DNA from: an uncultured archaeon
Lineage (GTDB): Archaea; Asgardarchaeota; Lokiarchaeia; Sigyniarchaeales; SOKP01
Reading direction: 5' to 3'
DNA length: 64,000 nt
NCBI GenBank assembly: GCA_964525635.1
Contig: CAZGJX010000003.1
Coordinates: forward strand, 39,465-103,464
Numbering within the stretch: position 1 is the first letter of the stretch; every line of letters begins with the position of its first letter. A program made the position numbers and the translations under genes. Under the pieces are notes generated by a model. The model was given only the letters and a program-made list of their open reading frames with translations. It was not told the DNA's origin and searched no databases. Shown in pieces: positions 22,131 to 39,502 of this stretch.

Positions 22131-23285
22131 ATGAATATAAGTGGTTTAGTCAGAAAAGAATTTGGTCGATTAAGAAGTGATAAAAGGACTTTAATTCTAT
22201 TATTTGCAATTCCGCTTGTATTAATAATAATATTTGGATTAACTTCAGGAGGGGGTCCTTCAGAATTCTTTCATGCATCAATTATAACAAGAGATGATAT
22301 GGATTCTTCATATCCGTTTCCCCCGATGAGTTCTGAATATGATGAAGTATTTATATCGATTTTTAATGATAATCTTACCTCCTTTGGCCTTGAAAGTTAT
22401 TATAATGTATCAAATGAAGAAGAATATTCTGAAGCCTATATTAATTGTAAAAATTTACTGAAAAAGGAGATTATTGATATTTTTATAGTATTACCAGAAA
22501 ATTTCTCCGAGACCGTCAGGGATAACTTAGACACGCATTTAATTTACTATATAGATGGATCGGATCTACAAGCAGTGAAAGCAATTAATGTTTCAATGTT
22601 AGAGCCTATAGTCCAATTCAAATTAAGAACAGGAAAGATGGTTAATTTTACTATGTTGTTGCCATATTTAGAATTTGAAGTACCTTTTTGGGAATCACAA
22701 GTATTAAATTATGCTTTTGCATTAACAATTCCTTTAATAATTATAGGAACAACAATGAATCTTTCATGTTTATCAATTGTGTCAGAAGGACCTTTACCAA
22801 GAATGCTTATTACTCCTGCTTCAAAAAGATCTATTATACTAAGTAAATTAGTCGCAAATTCATTAATTATGATACTTCAAGCAGGAGAAATTTTTATTGC
22901 AACTGCTATATTTGGTCTTTATAGTTTAGGTTCATTATTTGATTTATTTTTAGTATTTCTTGCAATTGGATTTAGTGGAGTAACTATAGGTATTTTTATA
23001 TCATCAATAAGTAAAACGGATCAACAAGCAAATCAACTCTATATGGTCTTTTTTATTATTATTTTATTATTTTCAGGACAATTTGTAAGTGTTGGGAATC
23101 TTCCTGCCTATATGCAGGCCATTATCTATTCACTTCCTTTAGGACATGGTATACCGCTTACATTTGATATAACATTAAAAGGATTGCCATTAAATCTTAT
23201 AACTTTTTCCAGTATAATATTTATATCTTTGGTATATATACTCTTGGCTTATATCATTTATTTATTTAAAAGAATAGAGGTTTGA
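22131..23285 (+). CDS. ABC-2 type transporter permease
   Basis: Has an N-terminal TM, a large sequon-rich loop, then five C-terminal TM segments with SKTDQQANQ. Confidence 0.7.
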   Translation: MNISGLVRKEFGRLRSDKRTLILLFAIPLVLIIIFGLTSGGGPSEFFHASIITRDDMDSSYPFPPMSSEYDEVFISIFNDNLTSFGLESYYNVSNEEEYSEAYINCKNLLKKEIIDIFIVLPENFSETVRDNLDTHLIYYIDGSDLQAVKAINVSMLEPIVQFKLRTGKMVNFTMLLPYLEFEVPFWESQVLNYAFALTIPLIIIGTTMNLSCLSIVSEGPLPRMLITPASKRSIILSKLVANSLIMILQAGEIFIATAIFGLYSLGSLFDLFLVFLAIGFSGVTIGIFISSISKTDQQANQLYMVFFIIILLFSGQFVSVGNLPAYMQAIIYSLPLGHGIPLTFDITLKGLPLNLITFSSIIFISLVYILLAYIIYLFKRIEV

Positions 23286-24511
23286 AAATGAATAGTGAAA
23301 ATGAATTAAAAGATAAAAAGAATGATCAAGGAGGATTAATTAGAGTTAAGAGTAGCTTATTTAGGATTTTAAAAATGATTAAAAAAGAATTTAGATTATT
23401 AAAAACTGATCCTTGGAATTTAGTAATTGCTATATTAATACCTCCGCTCATTATTATGTTATTTTCTTTTATGACGGGAGAAGCAGGAGAATCACCACCA
23501 TTACCTGTAGTTATTGTTTCAAATGATTCAAATACTTTTATAAATCCAAATAATTACACAGAATCAACATTGGATAGTTATTCCATACCTTACATAAATG
23601 CTGCGAATAAGTCAGAATTGTTAGATCTTAAGGCCGTCTATAACTCAACAAAATTTCCATATTCTATGGAAATTGCAAGAGAAGAGTTACTTAAAAGCAA
23701 AATTGGTTGTATTATTGTTATTCCTGTAGAATTTACGGAATTGTTAGTCTTAGGATATCCCGGAATAATTGAATGTATCCCAGATTCTTCGAGAATTTCT
23801 AAAGTTCAAGATAGTATTAATGCAGTATATGATTCGATCAAGATTTTTGTTGAAGATAATCATTTAACTCCTCAAATTATTTTAAATGGATTTGAAGAAT
23901 TTTCTGTCCCAGAAGAATATAATTTAAAATTTAGCTCTAATATAATACAATTATTACCTCTCATGGTATTTGGGATAGCAAATGTATTGACGATTCTTGT
24001 TATCGTTAAAGAAAATCCTATTTCTAGACTCTTACTAACTCCTGTTAAAAAAACAGAGATACTCATCTCAAAATATTTTACTTATTCGGTCGTATTATTC
24101 TTTCAAAATTTGGCTATAATTCTTGCTACAGTATTTAGTGGATTATATATAAGAGGATCTACTTTCGATCTTTTTGGAGCATTGTATATAATTGGTTATA
24201 CTGGAATAAGTATGGGTCTTTTTATTAGTTCCATTAGTAAAACAAAAACAGAAGCAAATCAATTATTTTTTGCTTCTTTTATAATAATAATCCTTTTAAG
24301 TGGATTATTTGTCCCATTAGGAAGCATGCCCATATATCTAAGTTTATTCGCTCAATTATTGCCTTTATCTCATGCAAATCCCCTAATTAGAAGTGTATTA
24401 TCAAAAGGGAACTCTATTTTCGGATATCATTTCTATATATTATTATTAGTAAGTTTAGCTTTGAATATTATTACATTTTTAATATTTTATAAAAGGAGGT
24501 ATGAAGTATAA
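23282..24511 (+). CDS. ABC-2 type transporter permease (paralog)
   Basis: Same topology as the upstream permease, with SKTKTEANQ. It overlaps the upstream permease stop. Confidence 0.7.
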   Translation: MKMNSENELKDKKNDQGGLIRVKSSLFRILKMIKKEFRLLKTDPWNLVIAILIPPLIIMLFSFMTGEAGESPPLPVVIVSNDSNTFINPNNYTESTLDSYSIPYINAANKSELLDLKAVYNSTKFPYSMEIAREELLKSKIGCIIVIPVEFTELLVLGYPGIIECIPDSSRISKVQDSINAVYDSIKIFVEDNHLTPQIILNGFEEFSVPEEYNLKFSSNIIQLLPLMVFGIANVLTILVIVKENPISRLLLTPVKKTEILISKYFTYSVVLFFQNLAIILATVFSGLYIRGSTFDLFGALYIIGYTGISMGLFISSISKTKTEANQLFFASFIIIILLSGLFVPLGSMPIYLSLFAQLLPLSHANPLIRSVLSKGNSIFGYHFYILLLVSLALNIITFLIFYKRRYEV

Positions 24512-25512
24512 TTCTGGGAAATTTAAATTCTAAAAATATAATCGTCAATGTAAGAAATCTCAAAGTTAACTTTAAAAAAAAAAAAATTATTCATGACGTA
24601 TCCTTTCAAGTCTACAAAGGAGAAATTATTGGATTATTTGGAATATCTGGGGCAGGTAAGACAACTATAATTAGAGTTCTAACTTGCCAAATAAAGGAAA
24701 AAAATTGGAAAGGGATAGTATCAGTAACTAATTTAAATCCTAAAAGAAAAAAGAATCATTCAAAAATACTGAGTAATATAGGATATGTTCCTCAGTTAGA
24801 ATTACTTAATCTATATTATGATTTATCTCCTTTGGTAAATGTTGAAATATTTGCATCTAATTATGGACTAAAAAAAGAAATTGCATTAAAAGCTGCAAAA
24901 GATTTATTTTCAATTTTAGATATCCCAAAAGATACCTGGAAAAATCCATTAGAAAAACTTAGTGGTGGTGAGAAAAAGAGAGTTTCTATGGCTATTGGTT
25001 TAATTCATAAACCTAGTGTATTATTTCTCGATGAGCCAACGACAGGAGTAGATGCAAACAAACGTTATGATATTTTAAATTATCTAAAGATATTAAATAG
25101 AAAATTGGGAACAACTATGTTTTTAATTACACATGATCTAGAAGCAGCTTTAATATGTGATAAAACAGCAATTTTAAGAGAAGGAAAATTATTAGAATTT
25201 GATGAACCACACAATTTAATATCCTCTCTTCCAAGTGAAGGAAAATTAGCAAGATTTATAATAGAGGACTTAAATGAGGATATAATTAATTTAATACAAG
25301 AATTTCCTTATTGTGAGTTTGTAGTTCGCACGGGAAATGATGTATTAGAAGTATTTATGAATGATTTTGAAAAAAATTTTATGGAATTTATCAATTTTTT
25401 ATTTAACAATAAAGTAAAAATAATTTCAATGAGTAGAGATATAGCAAATTTTAGGAGATATTTTCAAATACGAATTCAAGAAGAAGAAAGAAAAATTTAT
25501 GAAAATTTATGA
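24508..25512 (+). CDS. ABC transporter ATP-binding protein (5' end extended beyond the ORF-track start)
   Basis: Walker A GISGAGKTT (about 24640-24666) lies upstream of the track start at 24832 in the same open frame, which contains no ATG/GTG/TTG. LSGGEKKRVSMA and LFLDEPTTGVD lie downstream. An AAGGAGGT SD at 24493-24500 is followed by an in-frame ATA at 24508. Confidence 0.8.
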   Translation: MILGNLNSKNIIVNVRNLKVNFKKKKIIHDVSFQVYKGEIIGLFGISGAGKTTIIRVLTCQIKEKNWKGIVSVTNLNPKRKKNHSKILSNIGYVPQLELLNLYYDLSPLVNVEIFASNYGLKKEIALKAAKDLFSILDIPKDTWKNPLEKLSGGEKKRVSMAIGLIHKPSVLFLDEPTTGVDANKRYDILNYLKILNRKLGTTMFLITHDLEAALICDKTAILREGKLLEFDEPHNLISSLPSEGKLARFIIEDLNEDIINLIQEFPYCEFVVRTGNDVLEVFMNDFEKNFMEFINFLFNNKVKIISMSRDIANFRRYFQIRIQEEERKIYENL

Positions 25513-25538
25513 TTAATTTTACCGAAAGGTGATAAATA

Positions 25539-28500
25539 ATAGAAAGAAAGAAAAAAAGACGATTAATATATATTATATTAATTATTGGTATATTTACAGG
25601 TGAATTTATACTCCAATGGATTATCAATATACCATTTATAGAATATTTAAGTGAAAGTGAGGTAAAAAAGTATAAAGATAATATGGGTTATTTTGCTTAT
25701 ACTCACCAAAATCCTGACAGTGGGCTTTTTGTTGAACCTTCTATCGCTTATAATTATAGAGCAATAGATTCAATTAATTTTTCTGACTCTACTTTTAAAA
25801 ATTCTAATTTAACTAATCCTATTGATAATTCTTATCTTGATGTAGAAAATAGTCAATTTTTCTTGGATTATTTATTTGAGAAGCAAAATTCAGATGGTTC
25901 TTTTTCGGATATTGGAGGAATTGGAAATATGATTTCAACTTATCAAGTTGTTAAAACTATAGATAAATTAAATAGTTCTTATTTAGATACACCAGATAAA
26001 TTGGAAAGAGTTGATAAAATTATTGATTTTATAAATATTTCTATGGGTGAGAATGGTTGGGGCTTTAAAGCTCATCCAATCGCAAATGTTTCAGATATTA
26101 TTTCAACATATTATGCAATAAAACTAGCTAAACGGTTTAATAATTATTCAATATTACAGAATAGTAACATAAGTGTATTTATAAATTCTACTAGGTATTT
26201 AGCTCAAGGAGGTTATGGCCTCACAAGTTATAGTCCCATAGTAACTCCAGAAACTACCTATTTTGGAATAAAAGCTCATCTAGAAATGGATTATAATTTC
26301 ACTTTAGAGGATTTAGTCTTACTTGAAACATTTTTTTTTTTAAGAAGAGATCTTTTAGGGGGATATAAAGACTCTATGACGGGTATAACCAATGTAATAT
26401 CAACATATTATGCACTTGCTTCACAATATCTTCTAAATATACCACTCTCTGATTCATTTGAAGAAGTTACATTAGATTTTATACTTGATTGTCAATTACC
26501 TGATGGAAGTTTTGAATATTATCTTAATGTAATTTTGGATATCCCACGATTTAAATCTGGTTGGGCTGCCATGAAAGCTATTTCTTTATTAGAATATAAT
26601 GCTACAGCACCTCTTAGCGTAGCTAATAGTGTTAAAAGCAAATATTATAATTGGTTATATAAAAATCAAGCAATGAATGGTTTAGTTGGACAAATATCTC
26701 TCCAAACAAATTATTTTGGGGTATTATCTTTACATAACTACGATATTCAGAATTATACTTATTATATTAAGATGAATGAAATCTTAAAATATGCGGATTC
26801 CTGTTACAATCCTAATGATGGTGGTTTTGGCTCTAAACCAAATTCTAATTCAACTATTTTTTCAACTTATTGTGCGATTTTTTTATATAACTTATTTCTC
26901 CCTTATAATATATCTTATCTTCCTAATGCAACAGCAACGAAATTATATTTTAAAACAATTCAAAATGAGGATGGAGGTTATAAAGTAGGTGAAGATATAG
27001 ATGTTGTTATTTCCTTCTTTGGTTCCGTATATGAGCCAATCTTACATTTAATAAATACAAATATCTCTACAGTTATAAGTACATATTGGGCATTAAGTAG
27101 TCTAAATGATCTAGATGCATTAGATATAATCAATACTACTTCTTTACAACATTGGATTTTTTCATGTCAGAATGCAGATGGAGGATATTCATTATTCATT
27201 GGATTTCATTCAGATGTAATTTCAACATATTATGGATTAGAAATTCTTAGATTCTTTAATCTAGAACCCCTTTCTAAAATAGCTGCGCTAGAATTCCTTA
27301 AAAAAGCACAATCAGAAGATGGAAGTTTCATTCTAATACCATATCTTTCGTTATTATTTGATTTACCCACTTCCTTTATTGGTAATTATTTAGGCTCAAT
27401 TTCCTTATATTATTATAGATCACAACCCCAAAACTTACCTAATCTAGCTAAGTGGTTTAGAAATTGTTTCAGTAATATTACAGGGGGAGTTGGAGATTAT
27501 CCTTTTTTTGGAGGGGATCTTAGAAATACTCCTTATGGATTACTTATAATTGATCGTATTAGATTTGATCAAGCTTTTGATCCGTTACCATGGACTCGAC
27601 TGATTTTTTGGATAATGATTTCAGAAATTATAGTACTATTGTTAATTGTGATGCTTAATATGGTTTCATATGTAAACCTATCTGTAGTTAGAATACTAAA
27701 ATTAAAATTAGGTATAGGAGACAAATTAAATGTTGAATATTTAAAAAGATATCCAGCAATATATTGTGAAAATTTAAATATCTTTGTAGGTAAAAAGCTA
27801 ATTGTTGATGGTGTATCTTTAGAATTAAATCATGGAAAAATATTAGGCGTATTAGGAGAAAGTGGAGCAGGAAAATCGACTTTTATAAAAGCTTTGTTAG
27901 GTATGAGAAAATATAAAGGTAAATGTGAAGTTTATGGGATGGATGCACGGAAAAACAGAAAGAAATTTAGACCTGTTTTTGGATATGTCCCGCAAGACTT
28001 AGGTAAAATTTATTCCAATTTTACTACTCTACAAAATTTAATCTATTTTGGAAGTCAATACGGTCTTTCTGAAAAACAAATAATTAGTAGAGCAAAAAGA
28101 TTATTAAGAAGCTTAGAGATTGAAGATAAAATAAATGAACCTGTAAAAACACTATCAGGAGGTCAAAAAAGAAGAGTTAGTATTGCAATGGCTTTAATTC
28201 ATACACCAATCTTTTGTATATTGGATGAACCTACATCTGGCTTAGATCCTGTAGTTAGAGAAAATCTATGGCTTGCACTTACTAAGATAAATGAAAGATT
28301 TAATACTACTCTTCTGGTTATTTCTCATTATCCAGAGGAATCAAGATTTTGTAATAAAGTCGTAGTATTTGGTAGAAAAAGAGGAATGATAGATTTTGGC
28401 AATCCAAAGGATTTATTAGCTCAATTACCTGGAAAAGGAAGAACTATTGAATTATCTTTTAATGATTTATATGAAAATGGAGTTCAACGTTTAGAATCAA

Positions 28501-28697
28501 TAATAGGAATTGAAAAAGCTCTTGAAAATAAAGTAGGGAAGGATTTTATAATATTAACAGATTTGAATTTAAATGAAACTAAAAATAGAATTGAAATGGA
28601 ATTCGGTAAAAACTCAATATCAGAATTGAAGCAATCTGATGCTAAAATGGAAGAATATTTTAGGTATAAAGCACTAGAAATTCAGGATTTAATTTAA
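25539..28697 (+). CDS. fusion protein: N-terminal signal anchor, prenyltransferase/terpene-cyclase-like alpha/alpha-toroid repeats, TM helix, C-terminal ABC ATPase
   Basis: At least 9 repeats of the Q..DG(G/S)F...(I/V)STYYAL type are present. The TM is WTRLIFWIMISEIIVLLLIVMLNMV. The ATPase has Walker A GESGAGKST, LSGGQKRRVS and ILDEPTSGLD. The first ATG is at 25683, but the open frame upstream encodes KKKRRLIYIILIIGIFTG. Confidence 0.75.
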   Translation: MERKKKRRLIYIILIIGIFTGEFILQWIINIPFIEYLSESEVKKYKDNMGYFAYTHQNPDSGLFVEPSIAYNYRAIDSINFSDSTFKNSNLTNPIDNSYLDVENSQFFLDYLFEKQNSDGSFSDIGGIGNMISTYQVVKTIDKLNSSYLDTPDKLERVDKIIDFINISMGENGWGFKAHPIANVSDIISTYYAIKLAKRFNNYSILQNSNISVFINSTRYLAQGGYGLTSYSPIVTPETTYFGIKAHLEMDYNFTLEDLVLLETFFFLRRDLLGGYKDSMTGITNVISTYYALASQYLLNIPLSDSFEEVTLDFILDCQLPDGSFEYYLNVILDIPRFKSGWAAMKAISLLEYNATAPLSVANSVKSKYYNWLYKNQAMNGLVGQISLQTNYFGVLSLHNYDIQNYTYYIKMNEILKYADSCYNPNDGGFGSKPNSNSTIFSTYCAIFLYNLFLPYNISYLPNATATKLYFKTIQNEDGGYKVGEDIDVVISFFGSVYEPILHLINTNISTVISTYWALSSLNDLDALDIINTTSLQHWIFSCQNADGGYSLFIGFHSDVISTYYGLEILRFFNLEPLSKIAALEFLKKAQSEDGSFILIPYLSLLFDLPTSFIGNYLGSISLYYYRSQPQNLPNLAKWFRNCFSNITGGVGDYPFFGGDLRNTPYGLLIIDRIRFDQAFDPLPWTRLIFWIMISEIIVLLLIVMLNMVSYVNLSVVRILKLKLGIGDKLNVEYLKRYPAIYCENLNIFVGKKLIVDGVSLELNHGKILGVLGESGAGKSTFIKALLGMRKYKGKCEVYGMDARKNRKKFRPVFGYVPQDLGKIYSNFTTLQNLIYFGSQYGLSEKQIISRAKRLLRSLEIEDKINEPVKTLSGGQKRRVSIAMALIHTPIFCILDEPTSGLDPVVRENLWLALTKINERFNTTLLVISHYPEESRFCNKVVVFGRKRGMIDFGNPKDLLAQLPGKGRTIELSFNDLYENGVQRLESIIGIEKALENKVGKDFIILTDLNLNETKNRIEMEFGKNSISELKQSDAKMEEYFRYKALEIQDLI

Positions 28698-28720: not shown

Positions 28721-29440
28721 TTATTTAAATCGCTCAATTAATCCTTTATAAATTAGATAAAAACATATTATTGATGAGAGTGCTGTAATATTCATAATTA
28801 TTCTTAACAATTCGATATTTAGATAATTAATAAGGAATTCTGATAAAAATATTGCTAATAATCCAAAAACTCCCAAATAAAAAATTCGAAAATGTTCTTT
28901 TAATTTTTCATTTTCCATAGCATTGTATATTTCTTTTATAGTTCTCAATAAAGGAATAATCGAAATAAGAAGGACACAAATTATTATAAATAGGAAGAAA
29001 TAAATATTAAGGACTATGTATCCTGACTTAAAGGTTATTTTATCAAGAATAGCTGCAAAAGTCATACCTAATATTAAAGATACTGCATAAATCTTTAGAT
29101 AGTTGTTAATTTGAGACTTTTGAAAAGTTATCGATGATTTAATAATTATTTTATTTACTATATATAAAAATCCAAAAGCATAACAATTAAAAAAAGCAGA
29201 AATAATGTAGAAAATGATTAGTATAATTTCAAATACACCAACTATTAATAAAGTAAAATATACAATCATTGCAATACTCCCTAATGCAATTGCTATAAAA
29301 AACCAGGAAAAATATAAATTTAATTGCTCATCTTTAGATTTTAATATTTTATAGCTAAATAATAAAAAGAAACTAACTAAAGCTAACTGCATACAATATG
29401 TTAGTACTATATCATAAAGAGAGAATATTTCATTAATCAT
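28721..29440 (-). CDS. polytopic membrane protein (about 6-7 hydrophobic segments), unknown function
   Basis: A 239-aa ORF that is almost entirely hydrophobic helices separated by short K/N-rich loops. Confidence 0.5.
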   Translation of the reverse strand: MINEIFSLYDIVLTYCMQLALVSFFLLFSYKILKSKDEQLNLYFSWFFIAIALGSIAMIVYFTLLIVGVFEIILIIFYIISAFFNCYAFGFLYIVNKIIIKSSITFQKSQINNYLKIYAVSLILGMTFAAILDKITFKSGYIVLNIYFFLFIIICVLLISIIPLLRTIKEIYNAMENEKLKEHFRIFYLGVFGLLAIFLSEFLINYLNIELLRIIMNITALSSIICFYLIYKGLIERFK

Positions 29441-29644: not shown

Positions 29645-30103
29645 TTATTTAGAGAAAAGCAATGATATTTTATCCTCTATATTATTCTTAGATATTCCAA
29701 GAATATTATCAATAATATTTTTGAATTGGATAAATTGTGTGGAATATGAAAAATCATGACCATGATAATTTACTTTAAATTTATGTAAAATGTTTTCTAA
29801 TAGAGGATTAATTTTTCTTTTTACATTTTTATCGAATTTTTCATTCTTATCTAATATAAGATAGGCAAAGATATCTGTTATCTCTGAATTAATAGTATTA
29901 ATTTTTTCCTTTTTAAAAATAAAATTATATTTAGTACTTTCAAAAGACTCTATTGGCGAAATAAGGGTTTCAGCAAAATTTAATAAACAAGAAAGTAATG
30001 CACATTTATGAATTAAATCCTCATCCTTTTCACTAGGATTAATATAATTAGCACTTATTATAGGAATACCCCCGATAATAATACCTGCTTCATAAATTTG
30101 CAT
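29645..30103 (-). CDS. small soluble protein with a longin/roadblock-like N-terminal pattern
   Basis: MQIYEAGIIIGGIPIISANY..DEDLIHKCALLSCLLNFAETL..YNFIFKK..IFAYLILD follows the same beta-beta-alpha-beta-beta order as the C-termini of the TPR proteins. Confidence 0.45.
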   Translation of the reverse strand: MQIYEAGIIIGGIPIISANYINPSEKDEDLIHKCALLSCLLNFAETLISPIESFESTKYNFIFKKEKINTINSEITDIFAYLILDKNEKFDKNVKRKINPLLENILHKFKVNYHGHDFSYSTQFIQFKNIIDNILGISKNNIEDKISLLFSK

Positions 30104-30382: not shown

Positions 30383-32095
30383 TTGAATAACTATAGAAAA
30401 GAAGAATTAGAATTAATTAGAAAAAAAATAATAGATGCTATTCGATTTTCTGAGCGTTATTGGATGATTTATAAGAAAAATACTTTTGGATTTTCAACAA
30501 TATTAGATTTGAATTATAAAAAGAGTTACATCGAAGTATTACTATTTTCGAATTATGATGTCTTGCATGAAGGAGTACCTTTAATAGAAATAAACACACC
30601 TATAGAAACAGAACTTGATTTTAATACAATTATTGTTGATCCTGATTTTGATGATGATGGACTAATAAGTCCTATAAAAATAATTGAACGAATTAATATA
30701 TTAATTAATAAGGAATATCAATATCATATTGATTTTTTAAATAAAGAAATTGAATTAATGAACGAAGAATTTGAGAATTATCCATTTAAAGATATCCCCT
30801 ATTTTAGGAAAATTCGAATTTATTTCCCTGATTTTTATATTAAATTGAAAATTAATTTTGAGCTTTATCCATCAAAACCAACATTTTACTTTTCAAAATT
30901 TCTTTCAAGAATAATAAAATTAGTAGAATTTTTAAATATTGATCCTATTAAGAATTGGAATGAATTAGAACCTCCTCATTTAGTAGATATATTAAAATAT
31001 TTAATTAAACTTATTATTAAATCCCTTAAAATTAAGAATTATTACAAAAATTCTCAATATTTATTATTAGATAATTTTTTGTTAGAAAAAGATATAGATA
31101 AAATATCTTTTAAAATTCACAGAGGACAATCAATTGGAATATTATATGAGGGAACATCTGAAGAAAATAATGATCAAACTAGCATGAACATATTATTTAA
31201 AAGTATTATGGGGGAAATAAAAAATTTTTCAGGAGTTATAGATATATTTGGTAAATTTATTCAGCTGGTAGATAGAAAAGATCTAACAGGTATTATTAAT
31301 ATATCTAATTCAATAGATTTCAAAAAAGAAAATATGAAAATTAAGAAAGCAATTAAATATGGTATTAAATTAAAACCTAAATTAACACCCTATAGCACAG
31401 TTATATTAGGTAACCTACAAAATAAGGATAATATATTATTAAGAAAATCATGGCTTTTAAAAAATCCTATTTTTAAAAGTTTCTCAATTCTTAAGAAATT
31501 TAATAAAAAAAGAGAAATTATCAATAAAACTTTAGAAATAACAGGATTATCAAGTAAACTAAATTTAAAAGTATTTCAATTAAAGAAATTTGATCTTTTA
31601 TTATTATCTATAGCAAGGGCTCTTGTTCAATTACCAAAGATAATAATTTTTCCGATTCCTCAAGGCATCTTAAATAGATTGGAATATGAAAGATTAAATA
31701 ATTATTTAGAAATTATAAAAAAAAAGTTCCATATTGCACTTATAATTCATGGACCCGAGATAGTTGTTTCTAAATGTGACAAAATTTTAACTATTACAGG
31801 GAAGAAAGCTGATTCTGGAACAATGAAAGAATTAATTAAAAAAATACCACAATCAGGAGAATTAATTTCAATTGAATTAAATTATCCAAAAGAGGAAGAG
31901 TTAAATGAATTATTTCAATTAGAATCGGTTATAGTCCTTGAAGAGAGAAAATATGAAAAATATAAATTATTTCCAAAAGAAGATCCAGATAAATTAATTA
32001 GAAAAGTAATCCGTATATTTGGAGCTGATTTATATAGTTTTAAACGTTATAAAGCGTCTCTACATGAATTTGTTGAATTTTTAAGAATTTCATAA
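30383..32095 (+). CDS. UBC/RWD-like domain fused to a degenerate (catalytically dead) ABC-type ATPase domain
   Basis: The C-terminal 340 aa are collinear with ABC-2-type ATPases, but Walker A reads ILYEGTSEENNDQTS, the signature reads QLKKFD and Walker B reads IIIFPIP. The N-terminal part contains KLKINFELYPSKPTFYFSK...W...PPHLVDILKYLIKLI (YPxxxP-type). Confidence 0.55.
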   Translation: MNNYRKEELELIRKKIIDAIRFSERYWMIYKKNTFGFSTILDLNYKKSYIEVLLFSNYDVLHEGVPLIEINTPIETELDFNTIIVDPDFDDDGLISPIKIIERINILINKEYQYHIDFLNKEIELMNEEFENYPFKDIPYFRKIRIYFPDFYIKLKINFELYPSKPTFYFSKFLSRIIKLVEFLNIDPIKNWNELEPPHLVDILKYLIKLIIKSLKIKNYYKNSQYLLLDNFLLEKDIDKISFKIHRGQSIGILYEGTSEENNDQTSMNILFKSIMGEIKNFSGVIDIFGKFIQLVDRKDLTGIINISNSIDFKKENMKIKKAIKYGIKLKPKLTPYSTVILGNLQNKDNILLRKSWLLKNPIFKSFSILKKFNKKREIINKTLEITGLSSKLNLKVFQLKKFDLLLLSIARALVQLPKIIIFPIPQGILNRLEYERLNNYLEIIKKKFHIALIIHGPEIVVSKCDKILTITGKKADSGTMKELIKKIPQSGELISIELNYPKEEELNELFQLESVIVLEERKYEKYKLFPKEDPDKLIRKVIRIFGADLYSFKRYKASLHEFVEFLRIS

Positions 32096-32118: not shown

Positions 32119-32943
32119 ATGATTAAGAATATCTATATTTTAAGCAGAAATGGGATGTTGCTATATTCAAAAAATTTTATTGAACAAAAATACGATGATA
32201 ATTTATTAATTGGATTCTTTACGTCAGTAGAAAATTTTAGTCGAGAAGCTTTAGAAAGTATTGTAAAATTTATAGATCTTGGTGTAGATAATAAATTAAT
32301 CCTTAAACCAAAACCAGATGAAAAGATCTTTGGTGCAGCTATAGTAAGTTCTAAGGATAACAATATATTAGTGGGTAAGATACTTGATAACATATTGCAA
32401 GATTTTATTGATGATTTTTCACCTGATTATAATCTTGATAGAAAAAGTAAAAGTAAAATGGATAAAAATATAGAGGACAATCTAAAAAAACGGACATCTT
32501 CATCATTAAGAATTAGAATATTAAAAACTTGGTTAATATTAGGACCACTTGGATTATTACTTACAATTATTAACATAATGGCGACAGAATATTTTATTTC
32601 ATCCAGACAATCTGAATATGGATCTTTTTTTTATATGGAAGATATTCTATTAAGCATAATACCACAAGTAGTTTTAATTTCTTTAGCTGAACTTGTTTTA
32701 GTATTTGGTGTTGCTAATTTCATATCTGGATATATAATATTAGACCTCAAGCTAGCTGCTATAAATGTACTTCTATATTTTGGTTATATTCTTATCTTTT
32801 ACTTTATATCTGTAAAACCTGTCTTAGCTCTGATTATTCTCACGTTTTTTCCATTCATTATAGTCGCATCTTTATTGGCAGCATATCTTGGTTATGTTTT
32901 AGCGCTTCAGAGAATAACACTTAGAGTAAAAGAAATAGATTAA
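32119..32943 (+). CDS. longin/SNARE-like (AP-sigma-like) domain protein with a C-terminal multi-TM anchor
   Basis: MIKNIYILSRNGMLLYSKNF..LLIGFFTSVENFSREAL..IFGAAIVSS..ILDNILQDFIDDF parallels the sigma-adaptin/longin pattern. Four hydrophobic segments follow. An AGAGGA SD sits 7 nt upstream. Confidence 0.55.
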   Translation: MIKNIYILSRNGMLLYSKNFIEQKYDDNLLIGFFTSVENFSREALESIVKFIDLGVDNKLILKPKPDEKIFGAAIVSSKDNNILVGKILDNILQDFIDDFSPDYNLDRKSKSKMDKNIEDNLKKRTSSSLRIRILKTWLILGPLGLLLTIINIMATEYFISSRQSEYGSFFYMEDILLSIIPQVVLISLAELVLVFGVANFISGYIILDLKLAAINVLLYFGYILIFYFISVKPVLALIILTFFPFIIVASLLAAYLGYVLALQRITLRVKEID

Positions 32944-33119: not shown

Positions 33120-34604
33120 ATGAGTTATAAAGCTCCAAATGAAAAAGATTTAGAATCTTTAAAATCAATTGTGGGTAAGGACTATGCTTCAATGGATGAA
33201 GCAATTACAGCATCTTATTTATCTAAATCTGTTATGGGTTTAGAAGGTCAAATTCCTGATATTGTCATACGACCAAAATATGTTGAAGAAATCAGGAAAA
33301 TATTACTTTATTGTTCAGAAGAAAAAATAGCGGTAAGTCCCGTTTCTGGTGGCCTTTCAGGAGGATTTGCTTGTCCTACAATTAAACCTGCTGGAGTATT
33401 ATTAGATTTGGGCAGGATGAATAGAATTATTGAGATAGATGAGGATAATCGATATGCAATAATTGAACCAGGTGTTACAAACGGGCAAATTTGGGCATAT
33501 ATGCTTAAAAATAATTCTGATTTTGCCCCACCTATAGCTGACGGAGCCCCCCCTGCTGCAACAGTCATGGGAGATGCTATTGATCGAGGATTTTCACTTT
33601 ATACTTCAAGTGTTGGACCTCAAGGGGATAATTTTATGTGTGCTGAAGTTGTTTTTCCAAATGGAGATGTCTTACGTACTGGATCGTGGGTACTTCCAAC
33701 AGCTAAACCATTTTACAAGTACGGAATTGGCCCAGATATGTGGAGCCTTTTGATGGGTTCCCAAGGAACATTTGGGGTTATAACAAAAGTAGCTGTAAAA
33801 ATTTATCCTCACCCAAAATATAAGACAATTGTTGCTTGGGGAATGTCTAATCCTTATGATATGCAGAATGTAACTTATGAATTGGGTATAAGAGAGTTTA
33901 GCATTGCCCATAATACAGTTATGGTTCAAGGGGGAAATTACCCCTTAATTATGGCTCGATGGCCTAAAGATAAAATCCCCCACGATTATGAATTCTTTAA
34001 AGAGATGGGAATACCTAAATGGTGGATGAATTGGGAATGTTGGGCTTGGAATGATAGGGAGTTGGAATATATAACAGAAACAATTAATAATCATTGTAAA
34101 GAATTTGCAAAGAATAGAGCTAAAGATGGTAATAATATGCAACCATGGGAACTTCATCCAAAACAAATAACGAGTAGATTGAAAAAACCAAATAAAATTG
34201 CGATACCTTATGCACTTTGGGAGTCTGGATTTTTATTTATCACATGGTATACTCCCTGGAAAGATTGTGCTCAATTCGCTGAAAAATATATATCTATCTT
34301 AGAAAAATATGGTTTTCCTCCAGTAATTTGGATTGCTTCTATTGAACATTGTCGACAAGCAATATGTATGCCAATACTTGTTTTTGATAGTTCAAAATCA
34401 GAAGATATCGAACGTGTTCAAGATTTTAATAGGGAGACTACCGAATATAGTTTAAAACAAGGTTGGCTTAATTATAGACCTGATCCAAAATTTTCTATAA
34501 AAGCATATTATCAATCAGGATTATATTGGAAATATTTAAGAATGTTTAAAAGATTGGTTGATCCTAATATGATAATGCATCCTGGAAGACTAGGATTACC
34601 ATAA
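33120..34604 (+). CDS. FAD-linked oxidase (PCMH-type FAD-binding domain, GlcD/VAO-like)
   Basis: Has ..IRPKYVEEIRKIL..AVSPVSGGLSGGFACP..LDLGRMNRIIEIDEDNRYAIIEPGVTNGQI. Confidence 0.8.
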   Translation: MSYKAPNEKDLESLKSIVGKDYASMDEAITASYLSKSVMGLEGQIPDIVIRPKYVEEIRKILLYCSEEKIAVSPVSGGLSGGFACPTIKPAGVLLDLGRMNRIIEIDEDNRYAIIEPGVTNGQIWAYMLKNNSDFAPPIADGAPPAATVMGDAIDRGFSLYTSSVGPQGDNFMCAEVVFPNGDVLRTGSWVLPTAKPFYKYGIGPDMWSLLMGSQGTFGVITKVAVKIYPHPKYKTIVAWGMSNPYDMQNVTYELGIREFSIAHNTVMVQGGNYPLIMARWPKDKIPHDYEFFKEMGIPKWWMNWECWAWNDRELEYITETINNHCKEFAKNRAKDGNNMQPWELHPKQITSRLKKPNKIAIPYALWESGFLFITWYTPWKDCAQFAEKYISILEKYGFPPVIWIASIEHCRQAICMPILVFDSSKSEDIERVQDFNRETTEYSLKQGWLNYRPDPKFSIKAYYQSGLYWKYLRMFKRLVDPNMIMHPGRLGLP

Positions 34605-36052: not shown

Positions 36053-36822
36053 TTAAACGTCTCGTGTTCTAAATCTTAGATAAGCAAGAATAATACTAGG
36101 AATTAAATAACATAGCAACATTACTACTACCCAATCGACTTTTAATATAATAACAATTTCTTCAGAGGTAACTTCACCTCCAAAAATAGATTGTCCGACT
36201 AATTCAGAATAAAAAGGGAAATAATAGGGGCTATTGACAAAAGCAAGGAGTATTCCAAAAGCAGCTCCTAATATAATCAGTGTAATAAAAGCCATAGTCA
36301 TAGCTTGAGAACCAGATCGGAAAATGGTACTATGTAATATATATATAGCCGCATAAGTGATTCCAGATAAGCAAGAAAGCCCAAACCATATAAATAATTC
36401 AGTTGGAATTTGTTGATAATATATAATTGAATAGATCATTAATTCAATCAAGCAAGGTCCAATCCATATTAAAATAATTGTTAAAACAGCAAGAGTTTTA
36501 CCAATAAAAAAGTTTGTTCTCCCTGTTTTAGTAAAATTTGTAAGTACTGTTCGTTTATCAAACTCATCTGTTAAAATTCCTCCTGCAAAAAATAGGGAAA
36601 TAATTAATATTATCATCCCATAATTTTGGGTTATGGAGGATAAAAACTCTTTCGGATTTGGTGGAAGAAAAAAACCAATGAGAATCCCATATAAATTTAT
36701 AATTAATATTCCTAAAAAGAGAAGATGTAAATATCTTTTCTTTTTAGAGATAATTCAAACTTATAAACTTCAGATATTAATCTTGGATTAGTTCCTCTTT
36801 TGATTTCTATATCAACGGACAT
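36053..36822 (-). pseudogene. ABC-2 type permease disrupted by a frameshift
   Basis: ATG at 36822 gives MSVDIEIKRGTNPRLISEVYKFELSLK.. The frame then changes in an A-rich run near 36745-36755 to ..KKKRYLHLLFLGILIINLYGILIGFF..MIILIISLFF.. (track ORF 36053-36616). Confidence 0.7.
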
Positions 36823-36823
36823 T

Positions 36824-37858
36824 TTAATTATAACCTCTTTTCTTTTTTAATTTAGAATCCGTTTCAATCAGATCTAGATATAAATCTTCTAGACGAGAAG
36901 ACCTGACTTTACTAAATCCAATTATAGGTAGCTTTAAATCTAATGATAAAATATCATGTATTTCTTTTCTCGATTTAGGCTTCCCATCATAGTATATATA
37001 GAATCCAGATAAATTTTCATTATATTGAACTATTGCTTTTGTATCTTCAACACAATAAGGAACGATTCTTTCAGATAAATCTTTAGTATAGTATTCAATT
37101 TTATTATTTTTGATAGGATCAAGTAATTCAACGGCTATTTCTTTTATTGTCATTTTTTGTTCAAGATTAACTATTTTATCAACAGCTATGAGTTCTCCAT
37201 GATTTATAATGGCAATTCTATCACAGATTTCAGATATTTCATATAGCATATGTGAAGATAAGAAAATTGTTTTTCCTAATTCTTTATTTTTTTTCATAAT
37301 GTTTCTTACTTGTACACGCCCTTCAGAATCCAATCCGGTTTGAGGTTCATCTAAAACAGCCACAACGGGATCATGAATAAGAGCTTGAGCCAATCCAAGT
37401 CATTGTGTCATTCCATTTGAAAATTCTTTAATCTTTTTATTTTTCCATTGGATCATTTCAACCAAATCTAATACCCAATCAATTTGCTGTTCTATTTTAT
37501 GTCTTGGAACACCTAATAAACTACAATAATAGCTAAGATTCATTTTTGGTGTTGCCTATCCATAAAAAGCGGGTATATCAATTAAAAAACCAAATTTTTT
37601 GTATAATTCTAATGGGTGATCATTTATATTAATAAAATCTCCATTACCTGTGTTAATTTCAATAAATCCAGAGGTTGGTTTAACTAATCCACCGAGCATC
37701 TTCATCGTAGCTGTTTTACCCGCACCATTTGGTCCTACAAATCCTAAAATCTCTCCTTTTTAAACTTCAAGATTCAATTTATTCACCGCTATAAGATCAC
37801 TATATTCCTTAGTTGTGTTATTAAATCTTGCGATAGTGTTATCTATCATATTTCTCAT
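36824..37858 (-). pseudogene. ABC transporter ATP-binding protein with three in-frame stop codons
   Basis: One frame reads [68 protein letters not shown]. The stops are TAA at 37760-37762, TAG at 37556-37558 and TGA at 37400-37402. Confidence 0.85.
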
Positions 37859-38089: not shown

Positions 38090-39502
38090 ATGAATATAAG
38101 GGAAATGTCAAAGTCAGGAATAGAACGATTAGAAGAATTAAAGTCAAAAATCTATCAATGTATTCATTGTAAGGCTTGTAGATTTGCCTATTCAGGTCAA
38201 CCAAGTAAGGAAGGCATTGGTGAATATGAAGGGAAACAGGGAAAAATTCTTTATGAAGGTATGATTGATTCCTGCCCTGCAGGTATTGAATATGGTTGGG
38301 AAGCTTTCTGGAATGCTGGGATAATCTGGATTGCTCGTTCTATTTTAAGTGGAGATCTAAATATTTCTGAATCCGTGAGAGATGTTATTATGCCATGTAT
38401 TACATGTGGAATGTGTTCAACTCAATGTGAAAATAAAATTCCAACTGTAGATATCATTGAAGCCTTAAGAGCTGCTTGTGTTGAGGCAGGTGTACCTTTA
38501 GTAGAAAAACATGAAGTAATTAAAAAATTAGTAGAAGAACTGAATAATCCGTATGGAGGAAAAGCTGAAGAACGTTTTCAATGGGTAAAGGATGCTGGTT
38601 TCGAAAAATATATTAACAATAAAGATGCAAAAATCGCTTATTATGTTGGATGTACAGCAAGTTATCGTCAAAAAGAAATCGCTATTGCAACCTGTAAAAT
38701 TTTTGAAAAGCTTGGAATTAATTTCACCCTGATCCGTGAAGAAGTTTGCTGTGGAAGTCCATTTTTCAGAATTGGAGCCACAGAAACAGCCCAAGAATTA
38801 ATGAAAAAAAATCTTGAGAGTTTTAAAAAAGTAAAAAAAATATTTTTCTCCTGTGCTGGATGTTATAGAACTTTTACAATTGATTATCCAAAATGGAATA
38901 AATCAAAAAAAAATCCATTTCAGACATTACATGCTTTTGAATTAATCACACAATTGATAATTGATGATAAAATTAAATTTAAAGCAAATAAAAATCTGAA
39001 GGATAAGGTAGTTACTTATCATGATCCATGTCATACGGGTAGACACTTTGGTATCGAATTTGAACAAGAACTTATTGAACAGAGTGAAAATTTAATGTTT
39101 GATATGAGGAAACTCAATGAAAAACTTGAGGAATGGTTTGAAAAACCACGTATCATTCTAAAAAAGTTAGAAGAAGATGTAGGAATTCAATTTAAAGAGA
39201 TGTATCGTATTAAAATGGATTCTATGTGTTGTGGGGCTGGAGGCGGAGTAAGAGCAGCTTATCCAGATTTCTCTCTAAAAACTGCAAGTCTAAGGTGTGA
39301 TGAAGCCAATGCTATAGGCGCAGATATATTAACCACAGAATGTCCCTTTTGTTTTCGAAATTTAAGTGATGCTAATGAGAAATTTAAACATGAATTACAA
39401 GTGTATGGATTATTGGAAATTATCGATAAATTCGATTTATTAGAGATAATAGATACTCCATCTGAAGAATATGTATTAGATTTAAGGAGAAATATTCTCT
39501 GA
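38090..39502 (+). CDS. Fe-S oxidoreductase with two 4Fe-4S motifs and two CCG domains (GlcF/HdrD-like)
   Basis: Has CIHCKACRFAY and CITCGMCSTQCEN, then ..VGCTASY..CCGSPF.. and ..HDPCHTGRH..MCCGAGGG...CPFC. Confidence 0.8.
   Translation: MNIREMSKSGIERLEELKSKIYQCIHCKACRFAYSGQPSKEGIGEYEGKQGKILYEGMIDSCPAGIEYGWEAFWNAGIIWIARSILSGDLNISESVRDVIMPCITCGMCSTQCENKIPTVDIIEALRAACVEAGVPLVEKHEVIKKLVEELNNPYGGKAEERFQWVKDAGFEKYINNKDAKIAYYVGCTASYRQKEIAIATCKIFEKLGINFTLIREEVCCGSPFFRIGATETAQELMKKNLESFKKVKKIFFSCAGCYRTFTIDYPKWNKSKKNPFQTLHAFELITQLIIDDKIKFKANKNLKDKVVTYHDPCHTGRHFGIEFEQELIEQSENLMFDMRKLNEKLEEWFEKPRIILKKLEEDVGIQFKEMYRIKMDSMCCGAGGGVRAAYPDFSLKTASLRCDEANAIGADILTTECPFCFRNLSDANEKFKHELQVYGLLEIIDKFDLLEIIDTPSEEYVLDLRRNIL

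Follow-up and report, generated by a model that had tools for sequence, protein, structure and literature searches.

Organization of the locus

We analyzed a 64,000-nucleotide stretch (termed here the window) of contig CAZGJX010000003.1 from the assembly of an uncultured Lokiarchaeial archaeon (GCA_964525635.1), in which positions 30383–32095 of the plus strand encode a 570-aa protein, the target of this study, that combines an N-terminal tandem of alpha/beta modules (the putative UBC-fold region) with a degenerate nucleotide-binding domain (NBD) of the ATP-binding cassette (ABC) type and a C-terminal accessory domain. The gene starts with TTG, and its N-terminus (MNNYRKEELELIRKK) agrees in alignment with the N-termini of its orthologues. 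Four parts can be delimited along the plus strand: module 1 (residues 1–96; 30383–30670), module 2 (residues 97–222; 30671–31048), the pseudo-NBD (residues 223–490; 31049–31852), which retains the RecA-like and helical subdomains of ABC ATPases but has its Walker A, Q-loop, LSGGQ and Walker B motifs replaced, and the accessory domain (residues 491–570 plus the stop codon; 31853–32095). An initial annotation of this DNA, made by reading the letters, had described the frame as intact; the open reading frame (ORF) is uninterrupted, and every string quoted in that annotation is present. The GC content of the surrounding window is 21–32%.

Synteny was compared by tblastn across the contigs of orthologues and 73 loci from GTDB species genomes. 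The target belongs to a fixed order of six genes on one strand, which the initial annotation had not noted: an ABC-2 permease, a second ABC-2 permease, a stand-alone NBD (330–366 aa), a fusion of an alpha/alpha toroid, transmembrane (TM) helices and an NBD (995–1119 aa), the target, and a protein of 262–275 aa. The same order occurs in relatives that are 21–22% identical to the target (loci L006 and L007). In 66 of the 71 loci that could be evaluated, the target lies directly 3' of the toroid-NBD gene, and the gene for the 262–275-aa protein, a longin domain followed by four TM helices (longin+4TM), lies directly 3' of the target in all 65 loci evaluable for it. In about half of the loci, the stop of the toroid-NBD gene and the start of the target have a projected overlap of ~7 nt, and called genes overlap by 4–11 nt: The target is often translationally coupled and holds a fixed position between the canonical NBD gene and the longin+4TM gene.

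In the window, the two permease genes occupy 22131–23285 (384 aa) and 23282–24511 (409 aa) of the plus strand; the second matches Pfam families ABC2_membrane_3, ABC2_membrane and ABC2_membrane_2, and the orthologue of the first in loci L001–L007, likewise the first permease there, is annotated by Pfam. They are followed on the same strand by the stand-alone ATPase (24505–25512), which is canonical (GISGAGKTT, LSGGEKKR and FLDEPT) and has the accessory domain, and by the toroid fusion (25536–28697; Pfam Prenyltrans and ABC_tran), which consists of an N-terminal TM helix, a ~600-aa toroid of the prenyltransferase type, a second TM helix, a canonical NBD and the accessory domain. The frame of the fusion is open from 25536, and its first ATG comes at 25683. 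Because the N-terminal TM helix is present in orthologues, and is encoded in the window in frame 5' of the first ATG, the toroid should be extracellular and its NBD cytoplasmic.

These two consecutive genes lack a canonical start codon where their orthologues begin (24505–24832 and 25536–25683). The frame of the stand-alone NBD is open from 24505 and contains no ATG, GTG or TTG before 24832, with the half of the domain that bears Walker A (GISGAGKTT) upstream of that position; both open frames begin right behind a stop with Ile codons (ATA/ATT), and an ATG at 24501 is one base out of frame. The missing starts could reflect either non-canonical initiation or a 1-nt assembly error.

An ABC domain without Walker A, Q-loop, signature or Walker B motifs

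Residues ~225–570 had been described as collinear with ABC ATPases, accessory domain included, and profile comparisons bear this out. When residues 222–570 of the family were aligned with the canonical NBDs of the operon by hhalign, the match extended over 279 columns, from residue 237 to residue 567 within the accessory domain (probability 98.7%, E-value 3.4e-16); by BLASTP, the target is 30% identical over 143 aa to the NBD of its neighbor at 25683–28697 (E 6e-9). In searches of the PDB, phmmer with the target against all chains retrieved LivG (1g6h, E 8e-5) and then about 55 further ABC NBDs, and a profile of 33 orthologues, whose alignment (A1) is the basis of the column entropies and of the counts out of 33 given here, matched MacB at E 4e-10 and 289 ABC chains overall. 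The Pfam family ABC_tran (PF00005) has no match in the target at E ≤ 1, and matches 11 of the 33 family members at E up to 0.1 (best 2.7e-6).

The hhalign alignment sets the canonical Walker A sequence GESGAGKST opposite YEGTS-EENNDQ in the target, the Q-loop VPQ opposite ISN, the signature LSGGQKRR opposite LKKFDLLL, the Walker B segment ILDEPTSGLD opposite IIFPIPQGILN, and the H-loop VISHYPEE opposite LIIHGPEI; the replacements of Walker A, signature and Walker B proposed in the initial annotation are those seen in this alignment. Walker A is replaced by YEGTSEENNDQTS in the target, and neither its Gly nor its Lys is conserved in the family. The signature follows the family pattern L-[STK]-x-[LIF]-[DE] (LKKFD in the target) with both glycines gone, and Walker B reads IIIFPIP in the target and IIMFSIP in the family, the subsequent Pro being kept in 31/33 sequences (94%). 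Walker A, the Q-loop motif, LSGGQ and the Walker B Asp-Glu pair are missing from all 33 aligned orthologues, and family relatives of ~21–25% identity are also without Walker A; orthologues with intact Walker motifs, which would have marked the target as a single decayed copy, were found neither in the alignment nor among these distant relatives, and this candidate explanation was rejected. The H-loop His, said to be the one motif retained, is indeed there in the target (H456), but it is no rule of the family, being present in 24 of the 33 orthologues (73%) and replaced by E, N, Y, Q or F in the others.

No stretch that we examined varies more than the Walker A position, which has a mean column entropy of 2.83 bits, compared to 1.1–2.1 for the domains, and contains indels. 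The strand immediately before it, H-R-G-Q-S-I-G-I, is nearly invariant in the family, and the helical subdomain contains a variable insertion of ~40 aa (~residues 330–370). With no P-loop, Q-loop Gln, LSGGQ, or Walker B Asp and Glu, the target has probably lost both nucleotide binding and hydrolysis. Two distant family members, P0118 and P0120, retain a signature-like LTKGQ / LAAGEKRR with Walker A gone, and P0120 also has a Walker-B-like VEP. Because these proteins keep remnants of the signature in the absence of Walker A, their sequences suggest a stepwise decay of motifs in which Walker A was lost first and the others later.

The target has its accessory domain (IPQSGEIITIEL...ERKNEKYKIF...KASLxEYLEF) in common with both canonical NBDs of the operon, the target itself ending in ...KASLHEFVEFL. 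Residues E498, R522, E525 and K528 of this domain are invariant. The only Pfam match of the target, a sub-threshold one to KH_DEAH11 (a DEAH11-like KH domain), covers residues 529–555 (window ~31967–32047), and a weak match to the same family appears in 6 of the 33 orthologues (best E 2e-4). The closest paralogue of the pseudo-NBD is the toroid-fused NBD (E 7e-14 over 283 columns, as opposed to E 5.8e-6 over 168 columns for the stand-alone NBD), and since it is the closer of the two, the pseudo-NBD and accessory domain most likely arose by duplication of the 3' part of the adjacent toroid-TM-NBD gene.

The N-terminus contains a non-catalytic UBC-fold domain

AlphaFold2 (AF2) yielded a confident model of residues 1–232 from a 24-sequence alignment (mean pLDDT 87.7, pTM 0.73), in which the N-terminus forms two alpha/beta-meander modules. 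In module 1, a helix (residues 3–21) is followed by three strands (26–31, 34–42 and 47–54), a helix (57–63), a strand (68–71) and a helix (81–85); no other part of the protein is as conserved (mean column entropy 1.08 bits). In module 2, residues 97–215 were modeled at a pLDDT of about 90 as an alpha-helix (97–129), a four-stranded antiparallel meander (131–135, 138–147, 152–158 and 167–170, the last preceded by a YPxxP turn at 162–166) and C-terminal helices (two short ones, then 200–215).

The initial annotation had proposed a single UBC/RWD-like domain marked by YPxxxP. The fold stands, residues 97–215 being of the UBC/RWD type by AF2 and Foldseek as well as by profile matches, but there are two modules instead of one, and the spacing is actually YPxxP (Y162-P163-S-K-P166, before strand 4), as in the YPxxPP of E2s, YPxxxP being the RWD form. 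The previously quoted elements KLKINFELYPSKPTFYFSK (residues 153–171), W192 and PPHLVDILKYLIKLI (197–211) are all present. P163 and P166 are invariant, Y162 is found in at least 90% of the 33 orthologues, and YPxxP occurs in 11/11 distant relatives that have module 2. W192 is likewise invariant, and PPH and a helix come next, which we take to correspond to the conserved Trp and following helix of E2s. As had been claimed, the N-terminus has no catalytic Cys: Residues 1–464 contain neither a Cys nor an HPN motif, the sole Cys of the protein being C465 inside the NBD part, and residues 171–191, at the position of the E2 active-site loop, were modeled as short helices.

When the 1–232 model was compared with the PDB by Foldseek, the first ten matches included the tandem RWD of Knl1 (4nfa, 4nf9 and 8ppr_K), BRE/BRCC45 (6gvw_C and 6h3c_C), FANCL (7kzp_L/M and 3k1l) and a CCAN chain (7qoo_O), with CENP-O/P also among the leading matches. 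Dozens of E2s came next (UbcH5, Ubc13, Rad6, UBE2E), at probabilities of 0.94–0.99, a root-mean-square deviation of 3.6–4.0 Å over about 110 columns, and a TM-score of about 0.48 normalized to the E2; the tandem-RWD/UEV structures align over 207–252 columns, at E-values of about 1e-2 only. By sequence profile, region 115–220 matches Asgard proteins built of two to four repeated modules (P0114–P0137; E 1e-12 to 1e-4), which contain Pfam UQ_con, RWD, UBC_like, FANCL_d1 and RING domains and some of which are named "ubiquitin-conjugating enzyme E2 variant" or "ubiquitin-protein ligase" in their sources. Neither the target nor its orthologues match UQ_con, RWD or UEV of Pfam directly; the link runs via these multi-repeat proteins. 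Given the modeled fold, the profile links, and the lack of both Cys and HPN, module 2 is, on model and sequence criteria, a predicted non-catalytic UBC-fold (UEV/RWD-like) domain. The topology of module 1 is compatible with the same fold, and a "tandem RWD" reading of the N-terminus is unproven: hhalign detected no sequence similarity between modules 1 and 2 (E 0.45), such that an internal duplication cannot be shown.

Two further features of this region vary among family members. Between module 1 and the long helix lies a nearly invariant D88-x-D90-x-D92-G93 loop (DPDFDxDGLISP; window 30644–30661) that resembles the DxDxDG calcium-binding motif and is kept in the Lokiarchaeial clade and missing in distant relatives of ~520 aa. 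In orthologues P0042, P0043, P0044, P0048 and P0061–P0081, a 21–75-aa, apparently helical insertion rich in Lys and Glu directly follows the YPxxP turn (after target residue ~168), where it takes the place of the FxFSK strand-4 sequence; some of these orthologues are without the ~40-aa insertion in the helical subdomain of the NBD.

The family is under purifying selection

Searches for homologues recovered 87 sequences, mostly full length (about 510–650 aa) and 35–70% identical to the target, and a scan of GTDB species genomes recovered single-copy relatives in 73 of them. All homologues that carry a taxon name come from Asgard metagenome-assembled genomes (MAGs), mostly Lokiarchaeota/Promethearchaeota, and databases name them either "hypothetical protein" or a generic "ABC-type ... 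ATPase". A profile of the N-terminal 232 residues, searched against 1.84 billion representatives, added distant members with a target-like architecture (P0101–P0113, P0118, P0120 and P0135; about 500–590 aa). One further member, P0100 (748 aa), has a Lys/Pro-rich repeat of ~200 aa (KKAPEKKxPV) ahead of the usual architecture, with a sub-threshold match to Pfam Extensin_1.

Ratios of nonsynonymous to synonymous substitution rates (dN/dS) were calculated by the Nei-Gojobori method for orthologue pairs with dS of 0.1–0.6. The median is 0.18 for the whole gene, 0.17 for the N-terminus, and 0.20 for both the pseudo-NBD and the accessory domain, compared to 0.10–0.12 for the two catalytic NBDs of the operon; values for the 19-codon P-loop stretch by itself were too noisy and were not used. 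Based on these ratios, the dead NBD is under clear, somewhat relaxed purifying selection, and the relaxed constraint expected of a pseudogene, raised as a possibility at the outset, does not apply to this gene.

Target orthologues from MAGs labeled Hermodarchaeota, Odinarchaeota and Hodarchaeota (L015, L016 and L021) are mutually 95–98% identical in protein sequence, and because such identity spans three nominal phyla, the phylum labels of this MAG series look unreliable. The family may thus be essentially confined to Lokiarchaeia-type genomes.

The downstream gene encodes a membrane-anchored longin

The gene that follows the target (32119–32943, plus strand) encodes a 274-aa protein with a longin domain in residues 1–125 followed by four TM helices. 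It has 97 homologues, which are from Asgard archaea wherever named, and the core GFFxSxxNFSRE is invariant in the family alignment (A3). The AF2 model (pLDDT 78) has the order beta-beta-alpha-beta-beta-beta-alpha-alpha, then the four TM helices. Foldseek against the PDB returned 19 matches at E ≤ 1e-3 (7e-5 to 1e-3), the top-ranked of which are all longins of AP sigma/mu, zeta/delta-COP, and TRAPP Bet5/Trs23 with probabilities of 1.0, confirming at the level of the model that the N-terminus is a longin domain. This domain shares the beta2-alpha-beta3-alpha-alpha fold of the longin subunits of AP, COPI and TRAPP and of the longin SNAREs; what sets it apart from them is its fusion to four TM helices, the absence of a SNARE motif, and its location in an ABC operon.

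Upstream of the target, the window contains two lineage-specific genes on the minus strand, which encode a 239-aa multi-TM protein (28721–29440) and a 152-aa soluble protein (29645–30103). Among the loci that we fetched, this pair is present at the target locus only in the window and in its two closest relatives (L008 and L065). Proteins on both sides of the target had been called longin-like; this proved right for the downstream protein but could not be verified for the 152-aa protein, which has no Pfam match above threshold, shows no similarity to the profile of the longin partner, and is not part of the conserved operon. The insertion gives the target an upstream region of its own, 279 nt long and very AT-rich.

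A candidate accessory subunit of an Asgard-specific transporter

We consider it reasonably probable, if well short of certain, that the target serves an Asgard-specific ABC-2-type transporter as a non-catalytic accessory subunit. This transporter would be formed by the two permeases, the two canonical NBDs (one with the extracellular alpha/alpha toroid) and the longin+4TM membrane protein, with the target as a dedicated, stoichiometric subunit that docks on the cytoplasmic face via its retained NBD scaffold, the shared C-terminal accessory domain, or both. Its UBC-fold modules would then hold a cytoplasmic ligand, be it the longin domain of the longin+4TM protein or some other, such that the target would act as an adaptor or regulator and not as an engine.

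Several observations weigh against this proposal. Both canonical NBDs have an intact LSGGQ and Walker A, and two intact NBDs with two permeases could suffice as a transporter, in which case the role of the target could be peripheral. In the window lineage, the target is separated from the toroid-NBD gene by the two minus-strand genes, so strict co-translation is dispensable. With respect to the N-terminus, the Foldseek E-values of the model were, for all the consistency of the list of matches, never below 1e-3 (all were ≥ 8e-3), and module 1 by itself gave no significant sequence or fold match with hhalign or Foldseek.

A bolder version of the proposal would make the whole cassette an Asgard-specific membrane machine: an ABC-2 transporter with an extracellular toroid, under the cytoplasmic control of a membrane-anchored longin and of a Cys-less tandem UBC/RWD unit carried on a dead NBD, the pseudo-NBD serving as the bridge between transport and this control module. 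We regard it as decidedly unlikely in this complete form; if true, the regulatory assemblies with longin and RWD domains that work on membranes in eukaryotes would have a precedent among prokaryotes.

Alternatively, the pseudo-NBD might be the obligate degenerate half of a head-to-tail heterodimer with the toroid NBD, which together with the longin+4TM protein (2 + 4 = 6 TM helices) would form a second, asymmetric machine that has one ATP site and moves the toroid by mechanotransmission. The toroid-fused NBD is, after all, the closest paralogue of the pseudo-NBD, the overlap between the two genes in about half of the loci suggests 1:1 co-production, the scaffold that surrounds the dimer interface has been conserved (L400, the SIARAL helix, P426, and the RLE after Walker B), and the toroid protein has only two TM helices to the partner's four. 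However, the sole Walker A of such a dimer would face the pseudo-signature, which is without both glycines, and the LSGGQ that the toroid NBD has kept would face a site without a P-loop; its retention argues for a partner with a real Walker A, i.e., the stand-alone NBD or the toroid NBD itself. The operon also already supplies two canonical NBDs for its two permeases. We view this heterodimer as unlikely.

Very unlikely, in our view, is a role in which the UBC-fold module, in the manner of UEV domains, binds a ubiquitin-like protein, or an E3 or E2 of the Asgard ubiquitin system, and thereby links the transporter to the modification or recognition of cargo. Asgard multi-UBC/RWD/RING proteins are the nearest relatives of module 2 in sequence outside the family, and E2s its best single-domain matches in structure, but the conserved operon contains no gene for ubiquitin, E1, E2 or E3, and the module has no catalytic Cys.

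A cryptic NTPase, in which nucleotide is still bound at a non-canonical site (e.g., the invariant R247/G248/S250/G252 strand together with H456), is more improbable still. In its favor are the near invariance of the strand before the P-loop position (HRGQSIGI), the presence of the H-loop His in 73% of members, and the few distant members that keep signature-like LAAGEKRR / LTKGQ and Walker-B-like VEP. The 12–16 residues at the P-loop position itself, however, are essentially unconstrained, which is what makes this alternative so unlikely: At about 3 bits per column and with indels, they hold no conserved Lys/Ser/Thr pair. In addition, neither the Asp nor the Glu of Walker B is kept, Ser/Pro and Ile/Leu/Val standing in their places, and ABC_tran misses the target while recognizing 11 of the 33 aligned members at E up to 0.1. 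Finally, a decaying pseudogene or a chance ORF in AT-rich DNA, as might be suspected from a regional GC content of only 21–22% and from the two operon genes of the window that lack canonical start codons, is ruled out for practical purposes by an intact 570-aa frame with a confident AF2 model, 87 homologues, fixed synteny in 73 species genomes and a dN/dS of about 0.18.

Relationship to known systems

By homology, the target falls within the ABC NBD superfamily, yet its sequence appears to lack every catalytic hallmark of that superfamily. Its RecA-like, helical and accessory parts are collinear with those of ABC-2-type ATPases with an accessory domain, i.e., the NBDs of its own operon and, as the best sequence matches among solved structures, MacB, LolD, FtsE, LivG and TM_0544 (1vpl). 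It differs from them in the absence of Walker A, the Q-loop Gln, LSGGQ, and the Walker B Asp and Glu, in an H-loop His that is not fixed, and in two additions, ~40 aa inserted into the helical subdomain and 222 residues placed before the NBD at the N-terminus.

ABC NBDs missing single catalytic residues are well known. In heterodimeric ABC transporters with degenerate sites (TM287/288, TAP1/2, CFTR NBD1 and Pdr5), it is usually single catalytic residues or the signature that have changed, and the P-loop is kept and ATP still bound. The target resembles these sites as a non-catalytic NBD-type unit under selection; in contrast to them, its P-loop is gone and hypervariable, and it is a separate soluble polypeptide beside two canonical NBDs. 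It is unusual for a free-standing NBD paralogue to lose its nucleotide-handling motifs altogether and nonetheless to stay under purifying selection in over 70 species, and the target would represent a clear-cut example of a pseudoenzyme taken up as a structural subunit.

With respect to its N-terminus, the target belongs to the UBC superfamily by fold and motif, yet is neither an E2 nor an RWD protein recognizable by Pfam. It shares the order alpha, beta-meander, alpha with UEV proteins (Tsg101, Mms2 and Uev1a), with RWD domains, and with FANCL (tandem ELF/URD), Knl1, CENP-O/P and BRE/BRCC45. Like these non-catalytic proteins, it has YPxxP before strand 4, a Trp before the next helix, and no Cys or HPN, and it may resemble the tandem ones in its two consecutive modules. 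It differs in being helical between strand 4 and the Trp, with no E2 active-site loop, in lacking a direct Pfam RWD or UQ_con match, and in a module 1 that is not recognizably UBC by sequence; a fusion to an ABC NBD is not found among the UBC-fold matches in the PDB.

According to Tromer et al. (2019; PMC6601020), Asgard archaea have multiple E2s as well as a Uev-like homologue and an RWD-like domain. The target adds to the UBC-superfamily proteins of the same organisms; the passages that we consulted mention no ABC-like fusion or operon context (Tromer et al., 2019).

The initial annotation had also drawn an analogy to eukaryotic Gcn2 and Gcn20, for which we found support only in the co-occurrence of folds; no homology was found past the superfamily level. 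Both the target and the Gcn2 (RWD)-Gcn1-Gcn20 (ABC-F) system pair an RWD-type domain with an ABC-type ATPase fold, but Gcn20 acts on ribosomes as a soluble, catalytically competent ABC-F protein with twin NBDs, whereas the NBD of the target is single, dead, and encoded in a membrane-transporter operon.

In the literature on Asgard RWD domains, longins, and ABC transporter/prenyltransferase proteins, we found no description of the target architecture or of its operon. Degenerate NBDs and non-catalytic UBC folds are known kinds of domain, and it is their fusion and the conserved operon that are new. The operon would place the UBC fold and the longin, usually discussed as eukaryotic signatures, in a defined prokaryotic complex, and so would provide a handle on the roles that both had in Asgard archaea before their use in eukaryotic ubiquitin signaling, kinetochores and trafficking. 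It also points to an uncharacterized Asgard ABC-2 transporter with a predicted extracellular toroid domain.

Genes downstream of the operon

Loosely linked to the operon, at a distance of 1–6 kb downstream in ~40 of 75 loci, are genes for an FAD_binding_4 oxidase and a CCG/Fe-S protein, a GlcD/GlcF-like pair that is 72–75% identical between loci. In the window, what lies between the two members of this pair (33120–34604 and 38090–39502) is a gene for a multi-TM protein of 459 aa and a second ABC-2 system (36053–37393, minus strand).

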